DNA from: Bacteroidota bacterium
Lineage (GTDB): Bacteria > Bacteroidota > Ignavibacteria > UBA10030
Direction of reading: 5' to 3'
DNA: 49,730 nt
NCBI GenBank assembly: GCA_035574455.1
Contig: DATLYT010000050.1
Coordinates: forward strand, 1 to 49,730
The notes under the pieces were generated by a model. The model did no database searches, had not been told where the DNA came from, and saw only the letters and a list, made by a program, of their open reading frames with translations. Of this stretch, positions 18,622-49,002 are shown one piece after another (position 1 is the stretch's first letter; the number at the start of each line of letters is the position of its first letter). Position numbers and translations under genes: made by a program.

Positions 18622-18713
18622 AAAACAAAACTTTCAAAATTAGTTGAACAAAAGGTGAAGGTGTTACCCTTTCGTGGTATAACGACCGTATCCGTTGTGA
18701 AGTTTCTAAGCTC

Positions 18714-34915: not shown

Positions 34916-35797
34916 TCACGTTCGCTTTTTCTTCCCAGCCATCTCTTCATAAACTGGTTCGATGCCATACTTTCCTGCCGCCCACAGTGTCAAGAGAGTC
35001 GTCATGCCGGCGATGGCGCGCTTCTCGTCTTCCTCGTGAATAACGAGTCCATAGGTGTCGGCGACGAAGCGAAACTGCTTGAGCAGTTTCCGTGCCTGGC
35101 GAGGATTCACCCATCCGTGCCAGAAGGAAACTTGCTCGACGATCATCTCTTCGTGGCGGCGGAAAAATTCGCCCAGGGAGATGACCTTTTCACTGAGCGG
35201 TGTGCGGGGTTTGGCAAGGTTCAGCAGGTCAGCAACATACAAATCCCATTGAAGAGACAGCAACCGGTTTTCCGGCCGGCGGAGAAACTTGGCGCGGGCG
35301 AGCGAAAACTTTGCCTTCGTCTTCACGCGAAACTTCGGCACGATCGGATGGTAGTCGTAAATCGTGCGAACGAAGCTTTTATCCAACTCATCCGGCTCGC
35401 GGTATACCCAGATCTTTTTCAGTTGTGGCCACGTGTGGATTGTCAGGACGGCTTTATCGGCACTATCAAGGGAAATAAATTTCCCGTTCTCTTCTTTAAC
35501 GACTGTGATCCAGTGCTCCCACTCACGGATGCACAGGAGGGAGGGGATACCACGTCTGAGATAGGAAACCAACTCGCGGCGCGCTTGTTCGGGGTCGTGC
35601 CGTCGGAACATCTTCAGTTCGCATCGATAATATTTCGCGGCGCGGGCGAGCTGAATTTCGTCCGTCCCATACCACCAGTGCGTGCCGGCGATTTTCGTGA
35701 TGTTTTTCTCGTCGGCAAAAATCCCTAACGTTACCAGCGCATGTTTTAGCGCAAACGGCCCGCATTGCCACTGATTCGGTTGTGGGTAAAGTCCCAT
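34916..35797 (-). CDS. Cytoplasmic C39-like (papain-fold) cysteine peptidase domain protein with an uncharacterised helical C-terminal half
   Basis: N-terminal QPNQWQCGPFALKHALVTLG (Gln/Cys, C12) and EHWITVV (His95) followed by ISLDSAD. This matches the order and spacing of the C39/C39_2 catalytic motifs. No signal peptide. Residues about 140-293 match no motif I recognise. Confidence 0.6.
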   Translation of the reverse strand: MGLYPQPNQWQCGPFALKHALVTLGIFADEKNITKIAGTHWWYGTDEIQLARAAKYYRCELKMFRRHDPEQARRELVSYLRRGIPSLLCIREWEHWITVVKEENGKFISLDSADKAVLTIHTWPQLKKIWVYREPDELDKSFVRTIYDYHPIVPKFRVKTKAKFSLARAKFLRRPENRLLSLQWDLYVADLLNLAKPRTPLSEKVISLGEFFRRHEEMIVEQVSFWHGWVNPRQARKLLKQFRFVADTYGLVIHEEDEKRAIAGMTTLLTLWAAGKYGIEPVYEEMAGKKKRT

Positions 35798-39346: not shown

Positions 39347-41209
39347 CTACTTGATCAACATCATGTTTTTCACCGCCGAGTAGCCGCTATTCGTGCTGAG
39401 TCGGTAGAAATACATTCCAGAACTTAACCCTCTTGCATCGAACTGGACCGCGTAAGTTCCTCCCTCTTGCAAGCCATTCACAAGCGTTGCCACCTCCTGT
39501 CCGAGTACATTGTACACGCGGAGGGACACATCATGACGTGCCCCGACACCGGGTAATGAATAACGGATAACGGTCGTCGGGTTGAACGGATTCGGATAGT
39601 TTTGTTCGAGAATAAAGGTCTGCGGAATACTCGGTGTCTCTACCCGATCAACGCTTGTGGCAACTCCGGTGGAGCTGAGGACTTGACCGCGAATTTCTCC
39701 GCCGGGATTTGCTGCCGTATGGACGTTCATATAGAGTCGTCCTTTTACTAATTCACGCAGCAGCATATCGGTTAACGGTTGTGTCCCATCCGTTGCTGTC
39801 CACGTACCCGTCGAGGTATTATTGGTGAAAGTCATACTTTTTACAACGCCGCCAGCTGTGCCTGTCGCTGCATTGTGGAAGTGCGAACCCGTTATAGCCC
39901 CACTCAAGCCTGTCACCGTTGCATCCCAGCTCACTGTGCCATCGGTGTTTACTCGGACAGACCCTGTTCCCGCAGCAGTGGTGGTCACGGGTGGAACCTC
40001 TTGAGCACCCTCCAGCTTCGCTGCAAACCCAACGACGGAAGTTAACAACACCTGTCCCCGAATTTCTCCTCCTTGGTTTTGTCCGGTGTGGATGTTGACA
40101 TACAGTCTTCCTCTTAGCAATTCACTCAAGAGCGAATCGGTCAGGGGCTGATTCGCATCAGAACTACTCCAAACCCCCGATGTCGTGTTATTTGTAAATG
40201 TGAGGCTTTTCACCACACCCCCAGCCACCCCAGCTGCAGCATTGTGGAAGTGAGAACCCGTTATTGGCCCGCTCAAACCGTTGACGGTGATGTTGTACGA
40301 GAGTTGTGAAGCATTGGCGCTCAGGACGAATGTCCCTGTTCCACTTGCCGCGGTGGAGACGGCAGGTACTTCTTGGGTGCCATCGAGCTTTGCAGTAAAT
40401 ACAGCACCGGGACTGAGAAGAACCTGGCCGCGAATTTCTCCACCCGGATTGGCAGCAGTATGGACGTTCATATACAGCCGTCCTCTTACCAATTCTCGCA
40501 ATAAAAGATCAGTTAACGGCTGTGATTGATCGCTAGCACTCCAGGTACCGGCAGATGTATTGTTGGTGAAGGTCATGCTCTTAACAACGCCCCCAGTCGC
40601 ACCGACTGCCCCATTGTGGAAATGCGAGCCCGTAATGGCTCCGCTCAGTCCGGTAACGGTAGCATCCCAGGTCACCGTGCCGTTGGGGTTGAGCGTCACC
40701 GACCCGGTCCCGGCAGCGGTGGTGCTCACCGGTGGAACCTCTTGAGCGCCCTCAAGCCGCGCTGTAAATGTTACGGGTCCGGAAAGCAAGACTTGTCCCC
40801 GAATTTCTCCTCCCGGATATTGACCGGTGTGAATGTTAACGTACAGCCTACCACGTAACAACTCACTCAGCAATGAATCGGTCAAAGGCTGGGTAGCATC
40901 GCCCACACTCCAAACACCGGATGAGGTGTTGTTTGTGAACGTCAAACTCTTCACGACACCTGCGGCCACGCCGGCTGGGGCATTGTGGAAATGGGAACCC
41001 GTTATCGGGCCGCTGAGGCCGTTGACGGTGATGTTGTAGGTAAGTTGTGTTGCGTCTCTGCTGAGAATAAAGGTCCCCGTGCCCGAGGCTGTTGTCGTGA
41101 CGGGCGGAACTTCTTGACTGCCGTCTAACTTTGCCGTAAAGAAGATCTGCCCGTAGGATGTTGACACGACAACGAGCAGTCCAATGCAAATCCTTAGAAA
41201 TGATCTCAT
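39347..41209 (-). CDS. Secreted protein with four tandem CHRD domains and a T9SS C-terminal sorting domain
   Basis: Signal peptide. Four repeats of about 124 aa, each with GSHFHN...GGVVKS...LL.GRLY.N.HT....GGEIRGQV (CHRD pattern). The C-terminal FILEQNYPNPFNPTTVIRYSLP...YFYRL...K (nt 39350-39616) fits the type A Por/T9SS sorting domain. AAGGAGGAG RBS. Confidence 0.85.
   Translation of the reverse strand: MRSFLRICIGLLVVVSTSYGQIFFTAKLDGSQEVPPVTTTASGTGTFILSRDATQLTYNITVNGLSGPITGSHFHNAPAGVAAGVVKSLTFTNNTSSGVWSVGDATQPLTDSLLSELLRGRLYVNIHTGQYPGGEIRGQVLLSGPVTFTARLEGAQEVPPVSTTAAGTGSVTLNPNGTVTWDATVTGLSGAITGSHFHNGAVGATGGVVKSMTFTNNTSAGTWSASDQSQPLTDLLLRELVRGRLYMNVHTAANPGGEIRGQVLLSPGAVFTAKLDGTQEVPAVSTAASGTGTFVLSANASQLSYNITVNGLSGPITGSHFHNAAAGVAGGVVKSLTFTNNTTSGVWSSSDANQPLTDSLLSELLRGRLYVNIHTGQNQGGEIRGQVLLTSVVGFAAKLEGAQEVPPVTTTAAGTGSVRVNTDGTVSWDATVTGLSGAITGSHFHNAATGTAGGVVKSMTFTNNTSTGTWTATDGTQPLTDMLLRELVKGRLYMNVHTAANPGGEIRGQVLSSTGVATSVDRVETPSIPQTFILEQNYPNPFNPTTVIRYSLPGVGARHDVSLRVYNVLGQEVATLVNGLQEGGTYAVQFDARGLSSGMYFYRLSTNSGYSAVKNMMLIK
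39665..41149 (-). repeat. Coding tandem repeat, (A-B)x2 arrangement of about 372-nt CHRD units
   Basis: Protein repeats 1 and 3 (res 21-144, 269-392) are much closer to each other than to repeats 2 and 4 (res 145-268, 393-515). This indicates duplication of a two-domain block of about 744 nt. Confidence 0.85.
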
Positions 41210-41304: not shown

Positions 41305-41976
41305 TTACGTTGAAGCAGCCGCAGCATCTTCATTCTTTTGTGGCCGTAGCTTTGCCAACCGAGGCGCGAGGAAGACCCAGAGTCGATATCCTAACAACAC
41401 GGCAACGATGGCACCGTAGGTTAAGGGCCGTTGGGTGTCCGCCTTCACGAGCCAGAGGTAGTGAATGACTCCGCCAATCGCTGTAAGGTAGATGAGCCGA
41501 TGCAGTAGATTCCATCGCTTCCCGCCCATCCACTTGGTGATACGGTCTGTCGATGTCGCAGCAAGCGGAATCATTAACACGAAACTGGTAAAGCCGACAA
41601 GAATGAACGGCCGCTTGGCAATGTCGGCCGCAATCTCTTCCCAGGCAAAGAATTGGTCGAGGTAGATGTACGTGGTGAAGTGGAGAAGCCCATAAAAGAA
41701 CGCAAAGAGGCCGAACATCCGTCGCAGTTGCTGCAAGGGAGTCCAACCCGTGATGCGACGAAGCGGGGTAACGCAGAGCGTAATGACGATGAAGCGAAGA
41801 GTCCACGTGCCCGTCTCGTCGGTAATATCGTCAATCGGGTTCGCGCTGAGTTGGTCGTGGAGAGCGTTCCAGACGAGTAAGCCGAGCGGGAGGAGGCAGA
41901 GAAGAAAGACAATCGGTTTGATGACTCGACGGACGAGTTGAGCTTGGTTCATGGGAAAGGGGGTGTATTGCCTCAT
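41305..41976 (-). CDS. msrQ: Protein-methionine-sulfoxide reductase heme-binding subunit MsrQ (YedZ)
   Basis: Six-TM ferric-reductase-like protein. LSANPIDDITDETGTWTLRFIVITLCVTPLRR and RRMFGLFAFFYGLLHFTTY closely parallel E. coli MsrQ. The start is the ATG at 41976 or at 41952. Confidence 0.85.
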   Translation of the reverse strand: MRQYTPFPMNQAQLVRRVIKPIVFLLCLLPLGLLVWNALHDQLSANPIDDITDETGTWTLRFIVITLCVTPLRRITGWTPLQQLRRMFGLFAFFYGLLHFTTYIYLDQFFAWEEIAADIAKRPFILVGFTSFVLMIPLAATSTDRITKWMGGKRWNLLHRLIYLTAIGGVIHYLWLVKADTQRPLTYGAIVAVLLGYRLWVFLAPRLAKLRPQKNEDAAAAST

Positions 41977-42040: not shown

Positions 42041-42298
42041 GAAGCATATTTCACCTCTACGGGGTTCGATGACGTTCTTATTTCAAAAGCTACCAAAATT
42101 GCACTCCCCGCCAGACGGAAGGCGGGCTGGCTACGGAGTGTACGGGATTCGACACGTTTTTTATCGTCCCGTAGGGACGAAATGTTGGTAGAGCAAGTCC
42201 AAACAAAATTATCATAGCCGCGGTAGCGGCGACATTATGGTAGCCCCCGTCAGGCCTGCCCGCCTCAGGCGGGGGCGACTGTGCGTAACATCAGTTAG
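42041..42298 (+). repeat. Family A modular hairpin repeat cluster, locus 2 (about 6 units in both orientations) filling the msrP-msrQ gap
   Basis: Units: gaagcatatttcacc-tctacgggg (inverted), ctaccaaaattgcac-tccccgccagacggaaggcggg (inverted), cgtcccgtagggacg-aaatgttggtag, gccgcggtagcggc-gacattatggtag, cccgcctcaggcggg-ggcgac, and the end tgcgtaacatcagttag. Confidence 0.85.
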
Positions 42299-43248
42299 AA
42301 ATATTTCCTCAAATCCATCCCGGCATACAGATGCGCCACATGTTCGCCGTAGCCGTTGAACATGAGGGTCTTCCGCTTGAAGAACTCGCCAATCCGCCGT
42401 TCGTTCTTCTGACTCCATCGTGGGTGGTCGACATCCGGGTTGACGTTGGAGTAGAAGCCGTACTCATCGGGATTGGCAATCATCCATGTCGTCGTTGGCT
42501 GATTCTCCACGAACCGTATCCGGACAATCGATTTAATTCCCTTAAAGCCGTATTTCCACGGCACAACCAGGCGGATCGGCGCGCCGTTTTGATTCGGCAA
42601 TGTTTTACCGTACAGCCCGACGGCAAGAATCGTTAACGGATGAATGGCTTCATCCATCCGTAAGCCTTCAACGTAGGGCCAGTTCAGGTACGGCCTTCGT
42701 TGACCGGGCATCTGTTCGGGATCGTGAAGCGTGGTGAACTCGACAAATTTCGCCTTCGAGGTCGGTTCGAACTTTTTGATGAGATTGGCAAGGGGAAACC
42801 CGAGCCAGGGGATGACCATCGACCACGCCTCAACGCAACGCAATCGGTAGATGCGGTCTTCGAGCGTCTGGCCTTTGAGAATGTCTTCAAGGTTGTATGT
42901 TGCCGGCTTTTTGACGTGACCCTCGACGCGAATCGTCCAGGGCGTTGTGCGGAAGTTTTGAGCGTTCTTATGAGGGTCGTCTTTATCGACGCCGAACTCG
43001 TAGAAGTTATTGTAGGTGGTGATGTCTTTGTAGGGGGTCAGCTTTTCGTCGGAGTCGTAAGGGCCTTTCTTTGAGGGTTTCCAATTGTCCTGTTCACGAG
43101 CAAGAAGCTCTTGAAATGGAGCGATGGATTGTAACGCAAGGCCGGCCGTTGCCACAGAGGCGGTACGAAGAAACGACCGGCGGTTGTGATACAGTGATTC
43201 AGGTGTGATTTCGGACGGACGGACGTCGTCCGCGCGTTTGATAAGCAT
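42295..43248 (-). CDS. msrP: Protein-methionine-sulfoxide reductase catalytic subunit MsrP (YedY, Mo-molybdopterin, Tat-exported)
   Basis: Twin-arginine leader [67 protein letters not shown] and HPRWSQ nearly mirror E. coli MsrP through the C-terminus. The ATG at 43248 follows GGAGGAG. The TTG at 43272 was rejected. Confidence 0.9.
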
Positions 43249-43456
43249 AGTTCTCTCTCCTCCAGATGGCAAACGGCGTTTAGCCTTCTAACCGCAATGG
43301 GGAGGTTTTCGTTCCCAGCAAAAAGAACTTCTGGGGCGGGGACATTTTTACGCCAACAAGAGGAAGGACTAGAGGACACGGCAAGAAATCGAGGCGTTGG
43401 TAGAGACTTCAGCCGTGTTTGATGGAGGGCTCGCTTAGCATGACGAGTGACTTGTT

Positions 43457-45067
43457 TTACGTCCGCTCCTGTTTCCACCAGCGCTCGACGACCTGCGGAA
43501 TATTCGTCTGGACGCCGCTCTGTTTCCATTTATCGAAGAAGCGAATGTCCGCGCTTTCAGGTTCCGGATTGGGGTAGTCGATCTGCACGCGCAGAGGCAT
43601 AGGAATCGCATCGCCTACGACCAGTGCTTCACCCTGTCGAAGCGCGGGGAGGACGTCCACCAGCCCCGCAAAGCTATCGGGGACGAGTCGGCGGACGTAG
43701 TTCTGGTCGATCGGATTGGTGAGACGAAGGATCACGAAATTGCTGCACTGCGAAAGGATGGTTTCGGAGACTTCGGTCGGGCGCTGGCTAACGATCATAC
43801 AACTGACGCCGTACTTACGACCTTCCTTGGCGATACGCTCGACCACGCGGCGCGCGGCTTTCGTTGTGGATCCGCCGCTGGGAAGATAGTTGTGCGCTTC
43901 CTCGAAGACGAGCAAGATAGGGAAGTCGCGCCGGTGCATATTCCAGAAGTTGAAGTCGAACGACATCCGTGCCAGCATCGCGACGATGGTGTTCACGATG
44001 TCGAACGGAACGCCGCTCATGTCCATGAGCGTCACCTTGGCCGCGCCGCCTTTGCCGAAGATTCTCTCCATCAGGTCTTTCATCGACTCGGAGGTAAGGT
44101 ACTGCTTCGGTTTGAACATGAACGCGTAGCGCGGGTCGTTCAGCTTGCTGTCGAGTCGGACGAGGAAGCGCGTGAACTTTCCATAGAAAGGACCTTCTTT
44201 GGGTCCGGCCGTCGAACCTCCTGAGATTTTCTCGGTATCAAGGTACTGCATCTTCGCACGCACTTCGGAAATGTCATAGTACACCGGTGTGTCGATCGTA
44301 AGTACATCGGCGAGCTGTGGATTCTTTCCCTTCTTCGAGGCAATGATGAGATCCTTCAGCACGGTAATCTGGCTCGATGCGTTCTCATCCTTTTCATCGA
44401 TGAACATCTCCTGCATCTCTTCGAAATTCATCAACCAGTAGGGGAATTCGAGTTCAGCAATGTTGAGGTAGTTGGAGGAATCCTTAAACGCTGCCGCGTA
44501 CTCGTTGTGGATATCGAGAATGATGATGTTCGTATCGGGAAAGGACGTGACCTTTTGCAGGAGGGAGGAGACCGTGCAGGATTTTCCGGAGCCGCTGGAG
44601 CCCAGAACCGCGATATGCTTTCCGAAAAACCGATTCGGATCCAGGTAGCTACGCTCGTTTTCAAACATCGACAGGTTGCCGATGGAAAAACCGAACTTGC
44701 GGAAGACGGAGAACACGGCGGTGAGGTCGGCGTCCTCAGCGAGATAAACAGGTGAATCGACAGAGGGGATAATCGAAACGCCGCGCTCGTACCGCCCGCC
44801 CTTCACGGTGCCGACAAGGTTGATCGTCATAACGTAGCGCTGAGTGCTCACGCCGTTGATGGTCACGTCGCGTTTTTTGAAGTCCGACACCATCGCAACG
44901 ACGATCAGCTTCCCGAACGGAATCAGCACGTAACTGCCGACCTGCCCGATGTAGTACGTTTTCCCGTTCAGTTCGCGAGTGAGGGAATCGATCTCCTCAT
45001 CAACAAGCACGGTCAATCCCGCCGTGCTGACTTCTGAGACGACGCCAATCTTTTTTTGTGCTTGCAT
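43457..45067 (-). CDS. HerA/FtsK-clade P-loop ATPase (DUF87/HerA-like) without an adjacent NurA
   Basis: N-terminal beta-barrel-like segment (IGVVSEVSTAGLTVLV...GSYVLIPFGKLIVVAMV). Walker A GSSGSGKS (nt 44579-44602). Walker B ILLVFEEAHNYLP. VSQRPTEVS arginine-finger region. Confidence 0.8.
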   Translation of the reverse strand: MQAQKKIGVVSEVSTAGLTVLVDEEIDSLTRELNGKTYYIGQVGSYVLIPFGKLIVVAMVSDFKKRDVTINGVSTQRYVMTINLVGTVKGGRYERGVSIIPSVDSPVYLAEDADLTAVFSVFRKFGFSIGNLSMFENERSYLDPNRFFGKHIAVLGSSGSGKSCTVSSLLQKVTSFPDTNIIILDIHNEYAAAFKDSSNYLNIAELEFPYWLMNFEEMQEMFIDEKDENASSQITVLKDLIIASKKGKNPQLADVLTIDTPVYYDISEVRAKMQYLDTEKISGGSTAGPKEGPFYGKFTRFLVRLDSKLNDPRYAFMFKPKQYLTSESMKDLMERIFGKGGAAKVTLMDMSGVPFDIVNTIVAMLARMSFDFNFWNMHRRDFPILLVFEEAHNYLPSGGSTTKAARRVVERIAKEGRKYGVSCMIVSQRPTEVSETILSQCSNFVILRLTNPIDQNYVRRLVPDSFAGLVDVLPALRQGEALVVGDAIPMPLRVQIDYPNPEPESADIRFFDKWKQSGVQTNIPQVVERWWKQERT

Positions 45068-45119
45068 AGTGTTCTCGACGCTCCGTAGGTGACCAATTGA
45101 GACTGTGTGTTAGCCAATG

Positions 45120-46352
45120 TTAGTGAACTCTCTTGACAACTACAACGGTCATATCATCACTGTTTTCCGAGCCTTGAGAAAATTTCTGTACATCGTGGAT
45201 AAGAGCACGGCAGATTGTTTCGGCGCTTTCCTCGGCAAGCTCTTCAACCTTCTCTGCGACGCGCCGCTCGCCATAGAACTGACCCTGGCTATCCGTGGCC
45301 TCACTGATGCCGTCGGAAAACAGCACGAGGATGTCGCCGAATTCCAGATGCGTATGCTCGACCCGGTAGCGCTCATGAGGAAACGGTCCGAGAATTTGTC
45401 CCGTCGCTTCCAACAGTTCCACTCTTCGTTCGGCGGTGTGATAGAGCACCGGACTGTTGTGTCCCGCATTCGCATAGAGCAGGAGGCCCTTCTGGTCGTC
45501 CGCAAGCTCGATGTAGATCATGGAAACGAACTGTTCTTCCGAGAAGGTCGAATGTACCAACCGATTGATGCGAGACATGAGCGAGCTGATTTTCGTGTGG
45601 TACAAAATGCCCATCCGGAGGGCGCCCACCACGTACAGCGCCTGAGCCGCCGCCCGAAATCCCTTGCTTGCCGCGTCGCCGAGCACCACACTCAGTCGAT
45701 CGCGTTCGGCATCTGCAAAGAGATAGTCAAAGAAATCGCCGCCGACAATTCTATCCGGAATCGACATGCCGTATAGCTCATAGTTATGGAACTGCAGCGC
45801 CGATTCCGGTAAAATGCTTTGTTGAATCTCGCGGGCCTTATCGAGGTCACGCTCTAACAGCTTCGCTTTCTGCTCAATCTTCTTTCCTTTGAGCCGCGCC
45901 GTCACGGCGAGGCTGATAATGTTCAGCTCGCCCAGCAAGCTCTGGTCAAGCTCATCCGAGTTGAACGCCAGCACGTACTGATACACCAGTCCGCGCTTGG
46001 AGGAAAGACGCTCACCCACTCCCGTTGCCGAATACTTGAGAATGCCTTTCTTGCGCAGATATCGGTCTGTTTCCCGGGCAAGAATCGACCGATGCGTTCC
46101 GATTTGGACAAAGATGGGGTAGTCCGAAACGGAAAGCACATAGCCGGGTTCAATCCGCTCAATGTTGCCGATCTGATGAATCAGCTTGTAGGATTCCGTC
46201 CGGGGGTCGTACTGCCATATGCGACCGCCCTGGATGTTGATGTTTTCGTTTTTAACGATTTCGTTGACAACATGTTTGAGCAGTTGTGCATCGGATTTGA
46301 AGTCGTGAGAAACAAAGCTTTCGATCGTTTTGTACAGACGTCGCTGATTCAT
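45120..46352 (-). CDS. GAF domain-containing PP2C/SpoIIE-family serine phosphatase (RsbU-like)
   Basis: Residues about 15-165 have a GAF-like pattern. Next comes a coiled linker ending in AREIQQSILP. The PP2C core follows (VGGDFFDY, VVLGDAASKGFRAAAQ, LFSDGISE, DDMTVVVVK). Confidence 0.85.
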   Translation of the reverse strand: MNQRRLYKTIESFVSHDFKSDAQLLKHVVNEIVKNENINIQGGRIWQYDPRTESYKLIHQIGNIERIEPGYVLSVSDYPIFVQIGTHRSILARETDRYLRKKGILKYSATGVGERLSSKRGLVYQYVLAFNSDELDQSLLGELNIISLAVTARLKGKKIEQKAKLLERDLDKAREIQQSILPESALQFHNYELYGMSIPDRIVGGDFFDYLFADAERDRLSVVLGDAASKGFRAAAQALYVVGALRMGILYHTKISSLMSRINRLVHSTFSEEQFVSMIYIELADDQKGLLLYANAGHNSPVLYHTAERRVELLEATGQILGPFPHERYRVEHTHLEFGDILVLFSDGISEATDSQGQFYGERRVAEKVEELAEESAETICRALIHDVQKFSQGSENSDDMTVVVVKRVH

Positions 46353-46372
46353 GGAGTCCTTTACGTATTTTC

Positions 46373-48556
46373 TTATGCCGTTTTGCGTTTCTGGAGTTCG
46401 TACACTTTAATCGGTTTTTCTTTCCCCTTGACCTTGATCGGGTCGAGAGCGATGAGTTTGAATTTCTGCGGTTCGGTAAGATACTTCAGCGCGTTCTCGG
46501 AAAGTAGGATCTGTCCGCCTTTGGCTGCGCTACAGAGACGCGCACCTAAGTTCACGTTATCGCCGATGACGGTATAGTCCATCCGTTCCTCACTCCCCAT
46601 CGCGCCCATCACCATCTCACCGCTGTTAATGCCGATGCCGATCCGAATCCGGTCGTTTCCTTCAAACACCTCGTCGCGCGTAAATTGTTCCTGAATCTCT
46701 AACGCGGCGGCAAGGGCGTTGTCGACCATGTTCTTACCTTCGAACACAGCGACCAACTCATCGCCCACGTACTTGTCAATGTCGCCCCCAAATTGTTTGA
46801 CGATCGCCGATTGTCGGGCAAGGCAGCGGTTGAGCATGGCGACAACCTTTTCCGGTTCAACGTTTTCCGAAAACTTCGTGAAGCCACGAATATCCGAGAA
46901 AAAGACGGTGGCGATTTTCCGCTCTCCACCTAACTGCACTCCCGAAAAGTCTGCCTTCCGCACGGCATCGACGGTTTGCCGGGAGACGAATTTCTGCAGA
47001 TGCAATCTCTCGCGAAGTCCCTGCACCATTTCGTTGATCCGCCGTGCTAAGTTGCCGATCTCATCCTTCGAGACGACAGACGCCTGCACGGTAAAATCTC
47101 CTGCACCCACGCGCTGCGCGACGCGTTCAATCATCTTCACCGGTTTTACGACGACAGCGTTCATATAGAGACGGAGAATGACCCACACCAGAGCAATCGT
47201 CACGATTCCGACACCTGCTGAGCGCACTTTGTTTGCGGCGACGGCATCGTTGATGGCCTTCATCGAAGCTGAAATTTCAACCACAGCACGGATTTTTTGG
47301 TTCTTGCCGTGACAGGAGTAACACCGCGGCTCATTGGGGAGGGGAGTGAGTCGCACAAGTTTCTCATCGCCACTTTCAACACTCACGAATTCCAGCGGCT
47401 TCAGGCTCTCCACGACGGTTTGATTCTCTTTCCGCACTCGAGGAAGAGGGTTGAGGAAGCGCTCGTTACCCTCTTTATCGAACACGCTGAGGCTGTGGAT
47501 AACCGGCAACGCTCTGATGTCGTCGAGGTAGTAGCGGACGGAATTCGCTCTGCCGACGAGCATGATCCCCCGGAATCCTTCAAACAGTGCTGTCTGAAAT
47601 ACGGGGGTTAGCTTCCGATAAATGTCCGAGCTAAACTGTTGCAACGAGTCGGGGTAGAAGTCGACCACGATGGCGCCGCGCATCGGAAACTTCGAGCCGT
47701 GGCATACCTGACAACGCTCTTCGTTGGCGAGCGGTACGAAGAGCCGCAATCTTTTCTGATGATTCTGGAAGTACTTATCCGTGTTCTTCTTTTCGAGGAG
47801 CTCGTAAACCTGGTCCGCGTCGATATCATCACCCTCTTCCTCGCCGAAGGCAAGGTCGCCAAGGCGGCTGTAGACACGCACCTGCTGTATGCCCGGGATG
47901 TTGTTCGATGCCAGCATCAGCGTATCCATAAATTCACCACCCCCGCCGATCATGATGTTGCGGAAGGCGTTCGCAATGAAATCGCCCAGCACGCCAGCAA
48001 CCTGTTGATTCACCTCGGTCGGAGTACCCGGACGGATGGCGCTTGGCTTGAGTGCGAGTTGTAACACCCCGCGCACGGGGTCGCGCGGGTCATGACACCG
48101 CCAGCATTCGCGGCTGTTCCTGAGAGGTTCATAGCGCGTGAGGATGTCCTGTGCGCTGTCTTTCATCATCGTCCACTGTGTAGAGTGCGTGGAGAGGGTT
48201 CGGTGAAGAAGCGTGTCGGTTGCAGAGACGTTGTAGACAACACCTTCGCCCTCACGGAGGAAGACTTCACGGCCGAGGCGGTCGTAAATCGTGAGGTCGC
48301 CAAATGCTTTCAAATTTTGACGGACATCGTTCACCAGCTCTGCGGCGAACGGCGCCTTGCCGGTCAACATCACGTTGCGGATGCCCGCCATGAGCGTCTC
48401 GGAGTAAATCCAGAGCTTCTCGTGGTGATCGTTCACCATCTGCTCGGATTCTCGCTGGATGTTGAGAATCACGTATCCGCCGAAGCCGATGATGAGAACG
48501 GCAGTGATCAGAAGAAGGATTTTGTATTCGAGGCGTTCCTGGATGATGCGGACCAC
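46373..48556 (-). CDS. Membrane class III adenylate/guanylate cyclase with triplicated extracytoplasmic CXXCH (heme-c) sensor modules and a HAMP domain
   Basis: TM1 at res 12-32. Three modules of about 130 aa ending in CWRCH (48092-48106), CQVCH (47699-47713) and CYSCH (47309-47323). TM2 at res 447-469. HAMP (DEIGNLARRINEM). Cyclase core (VFFSDIRGFT, KYVGDELVAVF, TVIGDNVNLGARL; nt 46412-46924). GTG start. Confidence 0.85.
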   Translation of the reverse strand: MVRIIQERLEYKILLLITAVLIIGFGGYVILNIQRESEQMVNDHHEKLWIYSETLMAGIRNVMLTGKAPFAAELVNDVRQNLKAFGDLTIYDRLGREVFLREGEGVVYNVSATDTLLHRTLSTHSTQWTMMKDSAQDILTRYEPLRNSRECWRCHDPRDPVRGVLQLALKPSAIRPGTPTEVNQQVAGVLGDFIANAFRNIMIGGGGEFMDTLMLASNNIPGIQQVRVYSRLGDLAFGEEEGDDIDADQVYELLEKKNTDKYFQNHQKRLRLFVPLANEERCQVCHGSKFPMRGAIVVDFYPDSLQQFSSDIYRKLTPVFQTALFEGFRGIMLVGRANSVRYYLDDIRALPVIHSLSVFDKEGNERFLNPLPRVRKENQTVVESLKPLEFVSVESGDEKLVRLTPLPNEPRCYSCHGKNQKIRAVVEISASMKAINDAVAANKVRSAGVGIVTIALVWVILRLYMNAVVVKPVKMIERVAQRVGAGDFTVQASVVSKDEIGNLARRINEMVQGLRERLHLQKFVSRQTVDAVRKADFSGVQLGGERKIATVFFSDIRGFTKFSENVEPEKVVAMLNRCLARQSAIVKQFGGDIDKYVGDELVAVFEGKNMVDNALAAALEIQEQFTRDEVFEGNDRIRIGIGINSGEMVMGAMGSEERMDYTVIGDNVNLGARLCSAAKGGQILLSENALKYLTEPQKFKLIALDPIKVKGKEKPIKVYELQKRKTA

Positions 48557-48618: not shown

Positions 48619-48647
48619 AGTATCGCGGAAAATTGCTACAAAATCAA
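48619..48647 (-). promoter_or_regulatory. Sigma70-like promoter candidate for the cyclase-phosphatase-HerA operon
   Basis: On the minus strand, TTGATT (48642-48647), 17 nt, GATACT (48619-48624), about 60 nt upstream of the GTG start. Confidence 0.35.
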
Positions 48648-48792: not shown

Positions 48793-49002
48793 CTACTTCG
48801 GAAGGAACCAGTGGATGTATCCGCATTTCTCGCAGACGAGACAACGAGCGCTCTTGTTCAGCCAGTCGAGATCGAAGAACGACATCACCGCCGTATTGAG
48901 TTGTGCCTGGCGTTCATAGAAGCGTGTGTGGTGACAGATCTCGCATCGGATCGTGATGCCGGCGACGGTTTTTTCAGCAGCCTCTTGATCGAAGAGTCCC
49001 AT
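48793..49002 (-). CDS. Small zinc-ribbon protein (two CxxC pairs)
   Basis: 69 aa with CEIC and CEKC about 40 residues apart. Compact gene 9 nt downstream of the DinB-like gene. Confidence 0.6.
   Translation of the reverse strand: MGLFDQEAAEKTVAGITIRCEICHHTRFYERQAQLNTAVMSFFDLDWLNKSARCLVCEKCGYIHWFLPK

Follow-up and report, generated by a model that had tools for sequence, protein, structure and literature searches.

Two roles have been described for HerA-family hexameric ATPases: they power NurA-dependent DNA end resection, and in phage defence they serve as the scaffold that activates nuclease or NADase effectors. Here we describe a HerA-family gene with a different partner. It lies on the minus strand of contig DATLYT010000050.1 (assembly GCA_035574455.1, a Bacteroidota bacterium of the Ignavibacteria), of which positions 1 to 49,730 were analysed; this whole stretch of 49,730 nt is referred to below as the window. 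Directly upstream of the HerA gene is the gene for a phosphatase that joins a predicted GAF-fold domain to a PP2C/SpoIIE domain (GAF-PP2C), and upstream of that is the gene for a membrane-bound class III nucleotidyl cyclase. We find that the phosphatase and HerA genes form a conserved pair, to which the cyclase gene is an accessory. The three genes are, as first annotated, co-directional and closely spaced, with gaps of 20 nt between cyclase and GAF-PP2C and 52 nt between GAF-PP2C and HerA; 208 nt then separate HerA from msrP, provided that msrP starts at ATG 43248.

46373-48556, minus strand: class III cyclase open reading frame (ORF), 727 aa, accessory member of the module
45120-46352, minus strand: GAF-PP2C ORF, 410 aa
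43457-45067, minus strand: HerA-family ATPase ORF, 536 aa

The published structure of DUF4297-HerA shows the C-terminal domain of the effector docked on the HAS domain of HerA, which remodels it to its active form (bioRxiv 10.1101/2024.10.24.620088). The HerA subunits of this system are the nearest solved relatives of the window HerA, with full-length matches of 378-275 bits to PDB chains 9c1m (378 bits), 8ziq, 8xau and 8wiv; SIR2-HerA (8j4u, 126 bits) and archaeal HerA (4d2i, 115 bits) are more distant. The layout is also alike, since in DUF4297-HerA and SIR2-HerA (8j4u/8su9) a partner gene of about 400 aa likewise stands directly upstream of HerA. The partner here is, however, a GAF-PP2C phosphatase rather than a Cap4-like nuclease or SIR2 NADase, and the window pair is chromosomal, lineage-wide, slowly evolving and set in a housekeeping context. 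We do not place the pair in either of these systems: the window HerA falls short of the NCBIfam antiphage HerA equivalogs NF042944 (436 bits against a cut-off of 850) and NF042943 (182 against 800), and the upstream gene has no PADLOC match.

With the HerA-NurA end-resection machinery the window protein shares the HerA/FtsK-clade fold, Walker A, Walker B and the sensor motif. It differs in that no NurA, Mre11 or Rad50 was found by Pfam in the window or beside any homologue examined, and it does not reach the cut-off of NCBIfam helicase_HerA NF040819 (139 against 970 bits), so that this assignment was rejected as well. The HerA/FtsK-clade assignment itself, made initially from the sequence alone, is borne out by Pfam DUF87/HerA PF01935 (119.8 bits against a cut-off of 23.2), and the three motifs are intact.

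44579..44602, minus strand: Walker A, GSSGSGKS, residues 156-163 (G156, S157, G159, G161, K162 and S163 invariant in 12 homologues)
43892..43918, minus strand: Walker B, ILLVFEEAH, residues 384-392 (L386 to H392 invariant in 12 homologues)
43778..43789, minus strand: SQRP motif, residues 427-430 (invariant in 12 homologues)

Conservation of the phosphatase-HerA pair

We collected 110 homologous loci whose HerA is at least 50% identical to the window protein, using GTDB species genomes, metagenome contigs and exact-protein look-ups; all named loci are from metagenome-assembled genomes (MAGs) of Ignavibacteria/Bacteroidota. These were split at 67.5% HerA identity to the window protein, with 52 loci at or above this value and 58 below it. 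In the upper group GAF-PP2C was found directly upstream of HerA and on the same strand at every evaluable locus (48/48), with a gap of 12-116 nt (median 35.5 nt). The GAF-PP2C orthologues are 58-90% identical. The genes on either side of this pair vary: position −2 relative to HerA is taken by the cyclase, two ABC-2 permeases, DUF3109, MutS or others, and position +1 by MsrP, a 261-aa gene of no assigned family or others. MsrP is directly downstream of HerA in 23 of the 42 evaluable upper-group loci and was not seen in the lower group. Two lower-group loci, L109 and L112, also carry GAF-PP2C, as a full-length orthologue (54% identity) that shares the strand of HerA and follows it at a distance of 1.26-1.31 kb. 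The intervening gene, for an asparaginase, is on the opposite strand, and the upstream contexts of the two loci differ; their HerA proteins are 59-61% identical to that of the window and about 60% identical to the HerA of L015, a locus described below.

The adjacency of PP2C and HerA is the most conserved feature of the neighbourhood. Synteny of all three genes in related genomes was the test proposed in the initial annotation; it is seen throughout for PP2C-HerA and only in part for the cyclase, which is intact in 9 of the 34 evaluable upper-group loci. Of the two genes that had been called dedicated neighbours of HerA, the phosphatase is the invariable one in this clade. The PP2C-HerA coupling is thus well supported, and it is apparently undescribed: the annotation knew of no such pairing, and in a literature search of incomplete coverage we found no description of HerA paired with PP2C, SpoIIE, RsbU, GAF, adenylate cyclase or a response regulator.

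That GAF-PP2C and HerA are a conserved functional pair is the best-supported statement that we can make. Going further, we give about an even chance to the reading that they are a vertically inherited two-gene module in which phosphatase and HerA hexamer act together as a single signalling unit; co-transcription, complex formation, ligand, substrate and direction of control are what we infer for the pair. The two proteins would most probably form a physical complex, a view we favour because the nearest HerA relatives, those of DUF4297-HerA and SIR2-HerA, share the partner-then-HerA layout. The phosphatase would then occupy the "effector slot" of the HerA hexamer, ligand input through GAF and the ATPase state of HerA would jointly set phosphatase output, and the module would put out a phospho-signal instead of killing by a nuclease or NADase. 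An optional, ancestral input would come from the haem-c/HAMP adenylate-type cyclase, coupling the periplasmic redox state to the module, possibly via cAMP acting on GAF; this cyclase would have been lost repeatedly while the pair was retained.

A possible objection is that the adjacency reflects only history or shared regulation, with HerA an independent translocase or helicase that shares a transcript with a phosphatase whose STAS-type substrate is encoded elsewhere; together with the cyclase, msrPQ and dinB, that phosphatase may form part of a regulon for envelope redox functions. The neighbourhood lends itself to such an account: msrPQ follows HerA in the 23 loci noted above and dinB and mutS recur upstream, so the block looks like an old synteny with a redox and repair flavour.

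Several observations weigh against our preferred interpretation, and some of them speak for this objection. A mirror-tree/partial-correlation test with HerA, PP2C and MsrP gave no PP2C-HerA signal beyond that of MsrP, PP2C-MsrP distances correlating as well as PP2C-HerA distances. Only six HerA residues, scattered and forming no obvious docking-surface signature, are specific to the PP2C-linked clade, so few that the HerA paralogues hardly differ in clade-specific residues. All loci come from a single lineage, so that the 48 loci stand for only a small number of independent events, and under local rearrangement genes can stay close without selection. Pfam scans of the window and the conserved neighbour clusters gave no STAS gene or kinase linked to the module. 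Consensus scans found promoter-like and terminator-like counts around the three genes that did not exceed those of shuffled sequence, and no Bacteroidota-type TAnnTTTG (−7) motif upstream of them. Finally, a large HerA subclade situated between sucD and ndk has no signalling gene nearby.

What tells against a purely historical adjacency is that PP2C-HerA alone was kept at all 48 loci while every other neighbour was lost or replaced; this conservation against changing flanks makes such an adjacency less likely. The linkage was moreover retained after rearrangement in L109 and L112, and several HerA paralogues independently adjoin different signalling proteins. We therefore hold shared history or regulation to be an unlikely explanation, though one to be taken seriously.

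The phosphatase, the cyclase and a proposed second-messenger chain

The phosphatase has two predicted domains.

45129..45704, minus strand: PP2C/SpoIIE domain, residues 217-408 (Pfam SpoIIE PF07228, 150.3 bits against a cut-off of 25)
45948..46352, minus strand: N-terminal GAF-fold domain, residues about 1-135 (predicted structure)

By its score and its conserved metal-binding Asp residues (D206, D209, D226, D347, D399 and D400, invariant in 23 sequences), the C-terminal domain is assigned to the PP2C/SpoIIE (PPM) phosphatases, as annotated. Its structural matches by Foldseek are RssB, the RsbU domain of Rv1364c, SiaA and SpoIIE. The protein resembles the RsbU, RsbP, SpoIIE, SiaA and RssB phosphatases in having all the metal-binding Asp residues, in its nearest structures and in carrying an N-terminal sensor on a long helix, which in the model spans residues 138-180 and joins the GAF fold to the PP2C domain. 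PP2C enzymes of the RsbU/SpoIIE type usually act on STAS proteins. The window differs from the RsbU-type partner-switching systems in that it holds no STAS antagonist, RsbW/SpoIIAB-type kinase or sigma factor, and in that the invariable neighbour of its phosphatase is a HerA ATPase. Pfam scans of all large ORFs found no STAS protein or anti-sigma kinase in the window, and the neighbour clusters likewise have no STAS antagonist or GHKL anti-sigma kinase; a linked partner-switching module of the RsbU-RsbV-RsbW type was rejected.

The N-terminal GAF domain, the other half of the annotated architecture, is confirmed at the level of fold by a structure model and is not seen by Pfam, which gave no GAF match with E up to 10 in 16 orthologues. 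Foldseek with a full-length model was uninformative for the N-terminus, PP2C matches dominating the results, and an AlphaFold2 model of residues 1-165 (predicted local distance difference test score 86, predicted template modelling (TM) score 0.84) was used instead. The top 50 PDB matches to this model were essentially all GAF domains (E from 7e-6, TM-scores 0.5-0.7), among them 3e0y, 3ci6, 3k2n, the cAMP-bound GAF domain of Lcd1 (5w10), phytochromes and PDE2A (3ibj); we accept the GAF fold because these matches are almost exclusively to GAF domains.

The fold does not reveal the ligand. With the GAF domains that bind cyclic nucleotide monophosphates (cNMPs), such as those of PDE2/5, CyaB1/2 and Lcd1, the window domain shares the fold, Lcd1 and PDE2A being among its matches; it differs from them in its low identity (about 8-17%), its missing Pfam match and the absence of an NKFDE-like motif. 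Bilin-binding GAF domains, PtsP and GAF domains without a known ligand match equally well. Hidden Markov models (HMMs) of the window GAF domain and of the whole phosphatase matched only genes at position −1 and not the kinases beside other HerA paralogues; from the GAF result we take the GAF domains of those kinases to be a different module.

The cyclase was annotated as a membrane class III enzyme with an extracytoplasmic sensor bearing three CXXCH motifs and with a HAMP domain, and here Pfam, the hydrophobic segments and the motifs all agree. Pfam matches are to Mcp40H-20_sensor in three stretches (PF21563, 94.5 bits), Tll0287-like, HAMP (45.7 bits) and Guanylate_cyc (PF00211, 89.7 bits against a cut-off of 21.9). 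Hydrophobic segments at residues about 9-34 and 446-470 bracket the predicted periplasmic region, giving the order first transmembrane segment, periplasmic region with three haem-c PAS-like sensor units, second transmembrane segment, HAMP and catalytic domain.

48092..48106, minus strand: CXXCH haem-c motif 1, CWRCH, residues 151-155 (Cys..CysHis kept in 9/9 aligned orthologues)
47699..47713, minus strand: CXXCH haem-c motif 2, CQVCH, residues 282-286 (kept in 9/9 aligned orthologues)
47309..47323, minus strand: CXXCH haem-c motif 3, CYSCH, residues 412-416 (kept in 9/9 aligned orthologues)
47009..47152, minus strand: HAMP domain, residues 469-516
46394..46912, minus strand: cyclase catalytic domain, residues 549-721 (Guanylate_cyc)

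The PF21563 score and a CXXCH motif in each predicted unit mark the periplasmic region as a probable haem-c PAS-like sensor. The catalytic domain keeps FSDIRGFT, DKYVGD and MDYTVIGDNVNLGAR as intact motifs. It has the metal-binding Asp residues, the Lys, the Asn, the Arg and, at the position equivalent to Asp-1018, a Thr; nine orthologues conserve these residues, which place the protein among the class III nucleotidyl cyclases. Its Lys/Thr specificity pair, which we take to be of the class IIIb adenylate cyclase type, fits a putative class IIIb-like adenylate cyclase. With the class IIIb HAMP adenylate cyclases the protein shares the HAMP domain and a class III catalytic domain with this pair; unlike those with periplasmic sensors, it is genomically tied to HerA, and in two layouts. 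With the haem-c PAS sensors of Geobacter chemoreceptors it shares the CXXCH-bearing units, three of them, that match PF21563 and PF11845, and it differs in having a tripled sensor joined to a cyclase instead of to a methyl-accepting chemotaxis protein (MCP).

At the upper-group loci the cyclase is fragmented in one case besides the nine in which it is intact: in L018 (7331-8669) it lies upstream of PP2C-HerA as three tblastn fragments covering residues 1-300 and 571-724, which suggests gene decay or a frameshift in the assembly. A second layout was found at lower-group loci L015, L106 and L108, where HerA is followed, after 108-142 nt, by a cyclase orthologue (46-51% identity). Compared with the HerA of L015, that of L106 is 88% identical and that of L108 68%; the upstream genes differ among the three loci, and no PP2C was found within 6 kb in this HerA-cyclase clade; L107 has lost the cyclase. 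Over both layouts the cyclase orthologues adjoining HerA are 47-78% identical. The full block at L113 (MutS, DinB, DUF3109, an unassigned gene, cyclase, PP2C, HerA, MsrP and MsrQ) is probably the ancestral arrangement, and because of it the cyclase looks ancestral and repeatedly lost. The three genes are not an obligate unit, and the cyclase is accessory.

These data bear on the chain proposed initially, in which the haem-sensor cyclase makes cAMP or cGMP, GAF binds it, PP2C is activated, and HerA, dephosphorylated, is gated as a DNA-translocating machine. The domains and the PP2C-HerA link of that proposal stand; an obligate cyclase does not, and the chain as a whole finds partial support. 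In its favour are the adjacency, common direction and short gaps of the three genes, the intact, adenylate-type catalytic residues of the cyclase, the GAF fold with cAMP-bound Lcd1 among its top structural matches, and the recurrence of the order cyclase, PP2C, HerA in at least 11 loci and in L113. Against it, about 70% of the evaluable PP2C-HerA loci have no cyclase, and L018 has it as a pseudogene-like fragment; loci with and without a cyclase share the invariant GAF positions, which are equally conserved in both; the GAF domain has no NKFDE-like motif; and no kinase able to phosphorylate HerA is linked to the module. We are aware of no account of HerA being phospho-regulated by a PP2C, and the literature search gave none. 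The HerA-cyclase clade without PP2C means that a strictly linear chain through PP2C is not general. PP2C and cyclase are each tied to HerA in two layouts, which argues for a functional linkage to HerA itself and against a strictly linear path via PP2C. The linear chain would require a kinase encoded elsewhere and a GAF domain that binds a cNMP, and we consider it improbable.

Defence and the surrounding window

Given the nearest relatives of the window HerA, an antiphage system with GAF-PP2C in place of the nuclease or NADase effector must be weighed. The two-gene layout is that of the defence systems, the nearest solved structures are antiphage HerA subunits, and the best PADLOC match is to a defence HerA model (PDLC04105, 542 bits, full length). 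The cyclase also matches PADLOC models of PycC, in its catalytic domain only (85 bits); a Pycsar reading was rejected, there being no gene for a cNMP-activated transmembrane or TIR effector and the cyclase being a membrane sensor protein. The equivalog score and the missing PADLOC match of the phosphatase, given above, tell against defence, and a phosphatase is not an obvious abortive-infection effector. So does the distribution of the HerA family, which is 57-98% identical across hundreds of clusters and many MAGs, and is chromosomal, slowly evolving and in housekeeping synteny. No relative was found in the viral contigs scanned, and plasmid relatives are about 35-38% identical, none exceeding 38%; in these a gene of about 400 aa overlaps the HerA start, and for one such gene there is a weak match to Cap4_nuclease. 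We regard a defence function as unlikely, and as an account of this pair we give it very little credence.

The content of the window is of a housekeeping kind, by Pfam scans of all large ORFs: a secretin-containing cluster, class-III aminotransferase, ALAD, UDG, hemerythrin, transporters, citrate synthase, Clp ATPase, UppS, an Omp85/BamA-like protein, two OmpH, LpxD, LpxC-FabZ, LpxA, PanB, SurE, PFK, asparaginase, aconitase, a CHRD protein of the type IX secretion system (T9SS) and MsrPQ. The same scans gave no NurA, SIR2, Cap4_nuclease/DUF4297 or Mre11/Rad50, in agreement with the initial annotation, which had seen no NurA, Sir2 or nuclease partner. Composition is even across the window, with no anomaly, and Rfam and tRNA scans found no Rfam family or tRNA.

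Downstream of HerA are msrP and msrQ.

42295..43272 (likely ATG 43248), minus strand: msrP, molybdopterin oxidoreductase with a twin-arginine translocation signal (Pfam Oxidored_molyb), a frequent, not obligate, downstream neighbour
41305..41976, minus strand: msrQ, ferric-reductase-like membrane subunit (Pfam Ferric_reduct), syntenic with msrP

The three module genes had been called a self-contained operon, which we could not establish because the co-directional minus-strand run extends past them on both sides, from dinB (49509) through a Zn-ribbon ORF, the three genes, msrP and msrQ to a CHRD gene (39347). A sigma70-like promoter placed at 48619-48647 was not recovered by the consensus scan, and the scan found no intergenic terminator in the region of the three genes, counts being at chance level. 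TAnnTTTG does occur on the minus strand at 18635-18642, just upstream of the start of the Clp ATPase gene, and at 42204-42211, between msrP and msrQ; from these copies the host may use this promoter type, window-wide counts of the motif being at chance level.

Three further ORFs of the window drew our attention. Between dinB and the cyclase, a 68-aa ORF with four Cys (48796-48999, minus strand) gives a weak Zn_ribbon_13 match; being 78-91% identical in L001-L003, it is probably a real gene. Just downstream of msrQ, 39347-41209 (minus strand) encodes a 620-aa secreted protein with four CHRD domains, near-identical internal repeats, and a T9SS C-terminal sorting domain. At 34916-35797 (minus strand) is a 293-aa ORF without a Pfam match, whose N-terminal QCGPFALKHAL motif and conserved His further on are reminiscent of a papain/C39-like peptidase; its product is 58-61% identical to that of a 286-aa gene immediately upstream of HerA in L109 and L112, and a homologue recurs about 7-9 kb or less from HerA in several PP2C-linked loci.

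HerA paralogues and a possible signalling role

Clustering sets the PP2C-linked HerA clade apart from other HerA clades, the HerA proteins themselves being very similar. The HerA loci that lack PP2C might be mere orthologues in other taxa. This is contradicted by one MAG that carries both a PP2C-linked (g5) and a sucD-linked (g1) HerA, on large contigs whose tetranucleotide compositions correlate at r = 0.95; at least some of the clades are therefore paralogues, on the evidence of this single MAG.

The neighbours of the other clades differ from one clade to the next. In a chemotaxis-linked subclade, 60-65% identical to the window HerA and comprising L061 (5122-10902) and 17 similar loci (e.g. 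L083 and L095), the order at L061 is CheA, CheB, a GAF-histidine kinase, a hybrid histidine kinase (GAF-PAS-HisKA-HATPase-REC, REC being the receiver domain) and HerA, followed by a 410-485-aa protein with a C-terminal REC domain. An MCP and periplasmic binding proteins come next at most of the similar loci, and at some a REC-histidine kinase replaces the GAF-histidine kinase; gaps around HerA are 25-100 nt. Another clade has a REC-histidine kinase followed by HerA. In L088 (6762-7994) a HerA paralogue begins 7 nt after the gene for a DUF6901 protein of 410 aa (Pfam, 256 bits), and a matching C-terminal DUF6901 fragment precedes HerA at the contig edge of L077; this protein of about 410 aa occupies the slot held by PP2C in the window.

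A further clade, represented by L110 (1-10031) and the P0301 locus, is found within a large cluster of two-component genes that includes HDOD and HD_5 (HD-GYP-type) regulators: HerA is downstream of a kinase with periplasmic binding protein and PAS domains, REC-HDOD, a PAS-histidine kinase, REC-HD_5 and two single REC genes, and after it come a BrkB/YihY-like membrane protein and a REC protein, in that order. Over its C-terminal 220 aa this REC protein is 35-39% identical to the proteins that follow HerA in the chemotaxis-linked clade, which combine an unassigned N-terminal region with a C-terminal REC domain. The largest subclade without a signalling neighbour comprises L013, L021-L023 and about 20 metagenome loci, where HerA is flanked by sucD and ndk/Nudix. 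The enzymes encoded by sucD and by ndk each work via a phosphohistidine intermediate, which may echo the phosphotransfer theme of the other HerA neighbourhoods or may be coincidence.

These neighbourhoods invite a more speculative reading, which we think on balance doubtful: that HerA hexameric ATPases are a previously unrecognised class of signal transducers in Ignavibacteria/Bacteroidota. A slowly evolving family of the chromosome would have given paralogues that are each hard-wired to a different partner, and the HerA ring, driven by ATP, would serve as the scaffold or sensor by which that partner is switched on. The partners would be GAF-PP2C; the haem-sensor adenylate cyclase; hybrid and REC-histidine kinases with a TerB-like REC protein, in the chemotaxis cluster; and the DUF6901 protein. 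If true, signalling HerA would correspond, on the housekeeping side, to the HerA that activates effectors in antiphage systems, and the one may have given rise to the other.

For the pair itself the implications are more concrete. The module adds a sensor-phosphatase variant to the known modules made of a partner plus HerA. The haem sensor and the msrPQ genes in the neighbourhood suggest a possible tie between its regulation and periplasmic redox stress. The PP2C-HerA pairing would add a third role for HerA, in which ring translocases are linked to phospho- and second-messenger signalling; the recurrence of cyclases, histidine kinases and receiver proteins beside its paralogues points in that direction too. 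PP2C-HerA thereby offers a concrete pair with which to ask whether the assembly-driven activation of antiphage systems also serves ordinary regulation.

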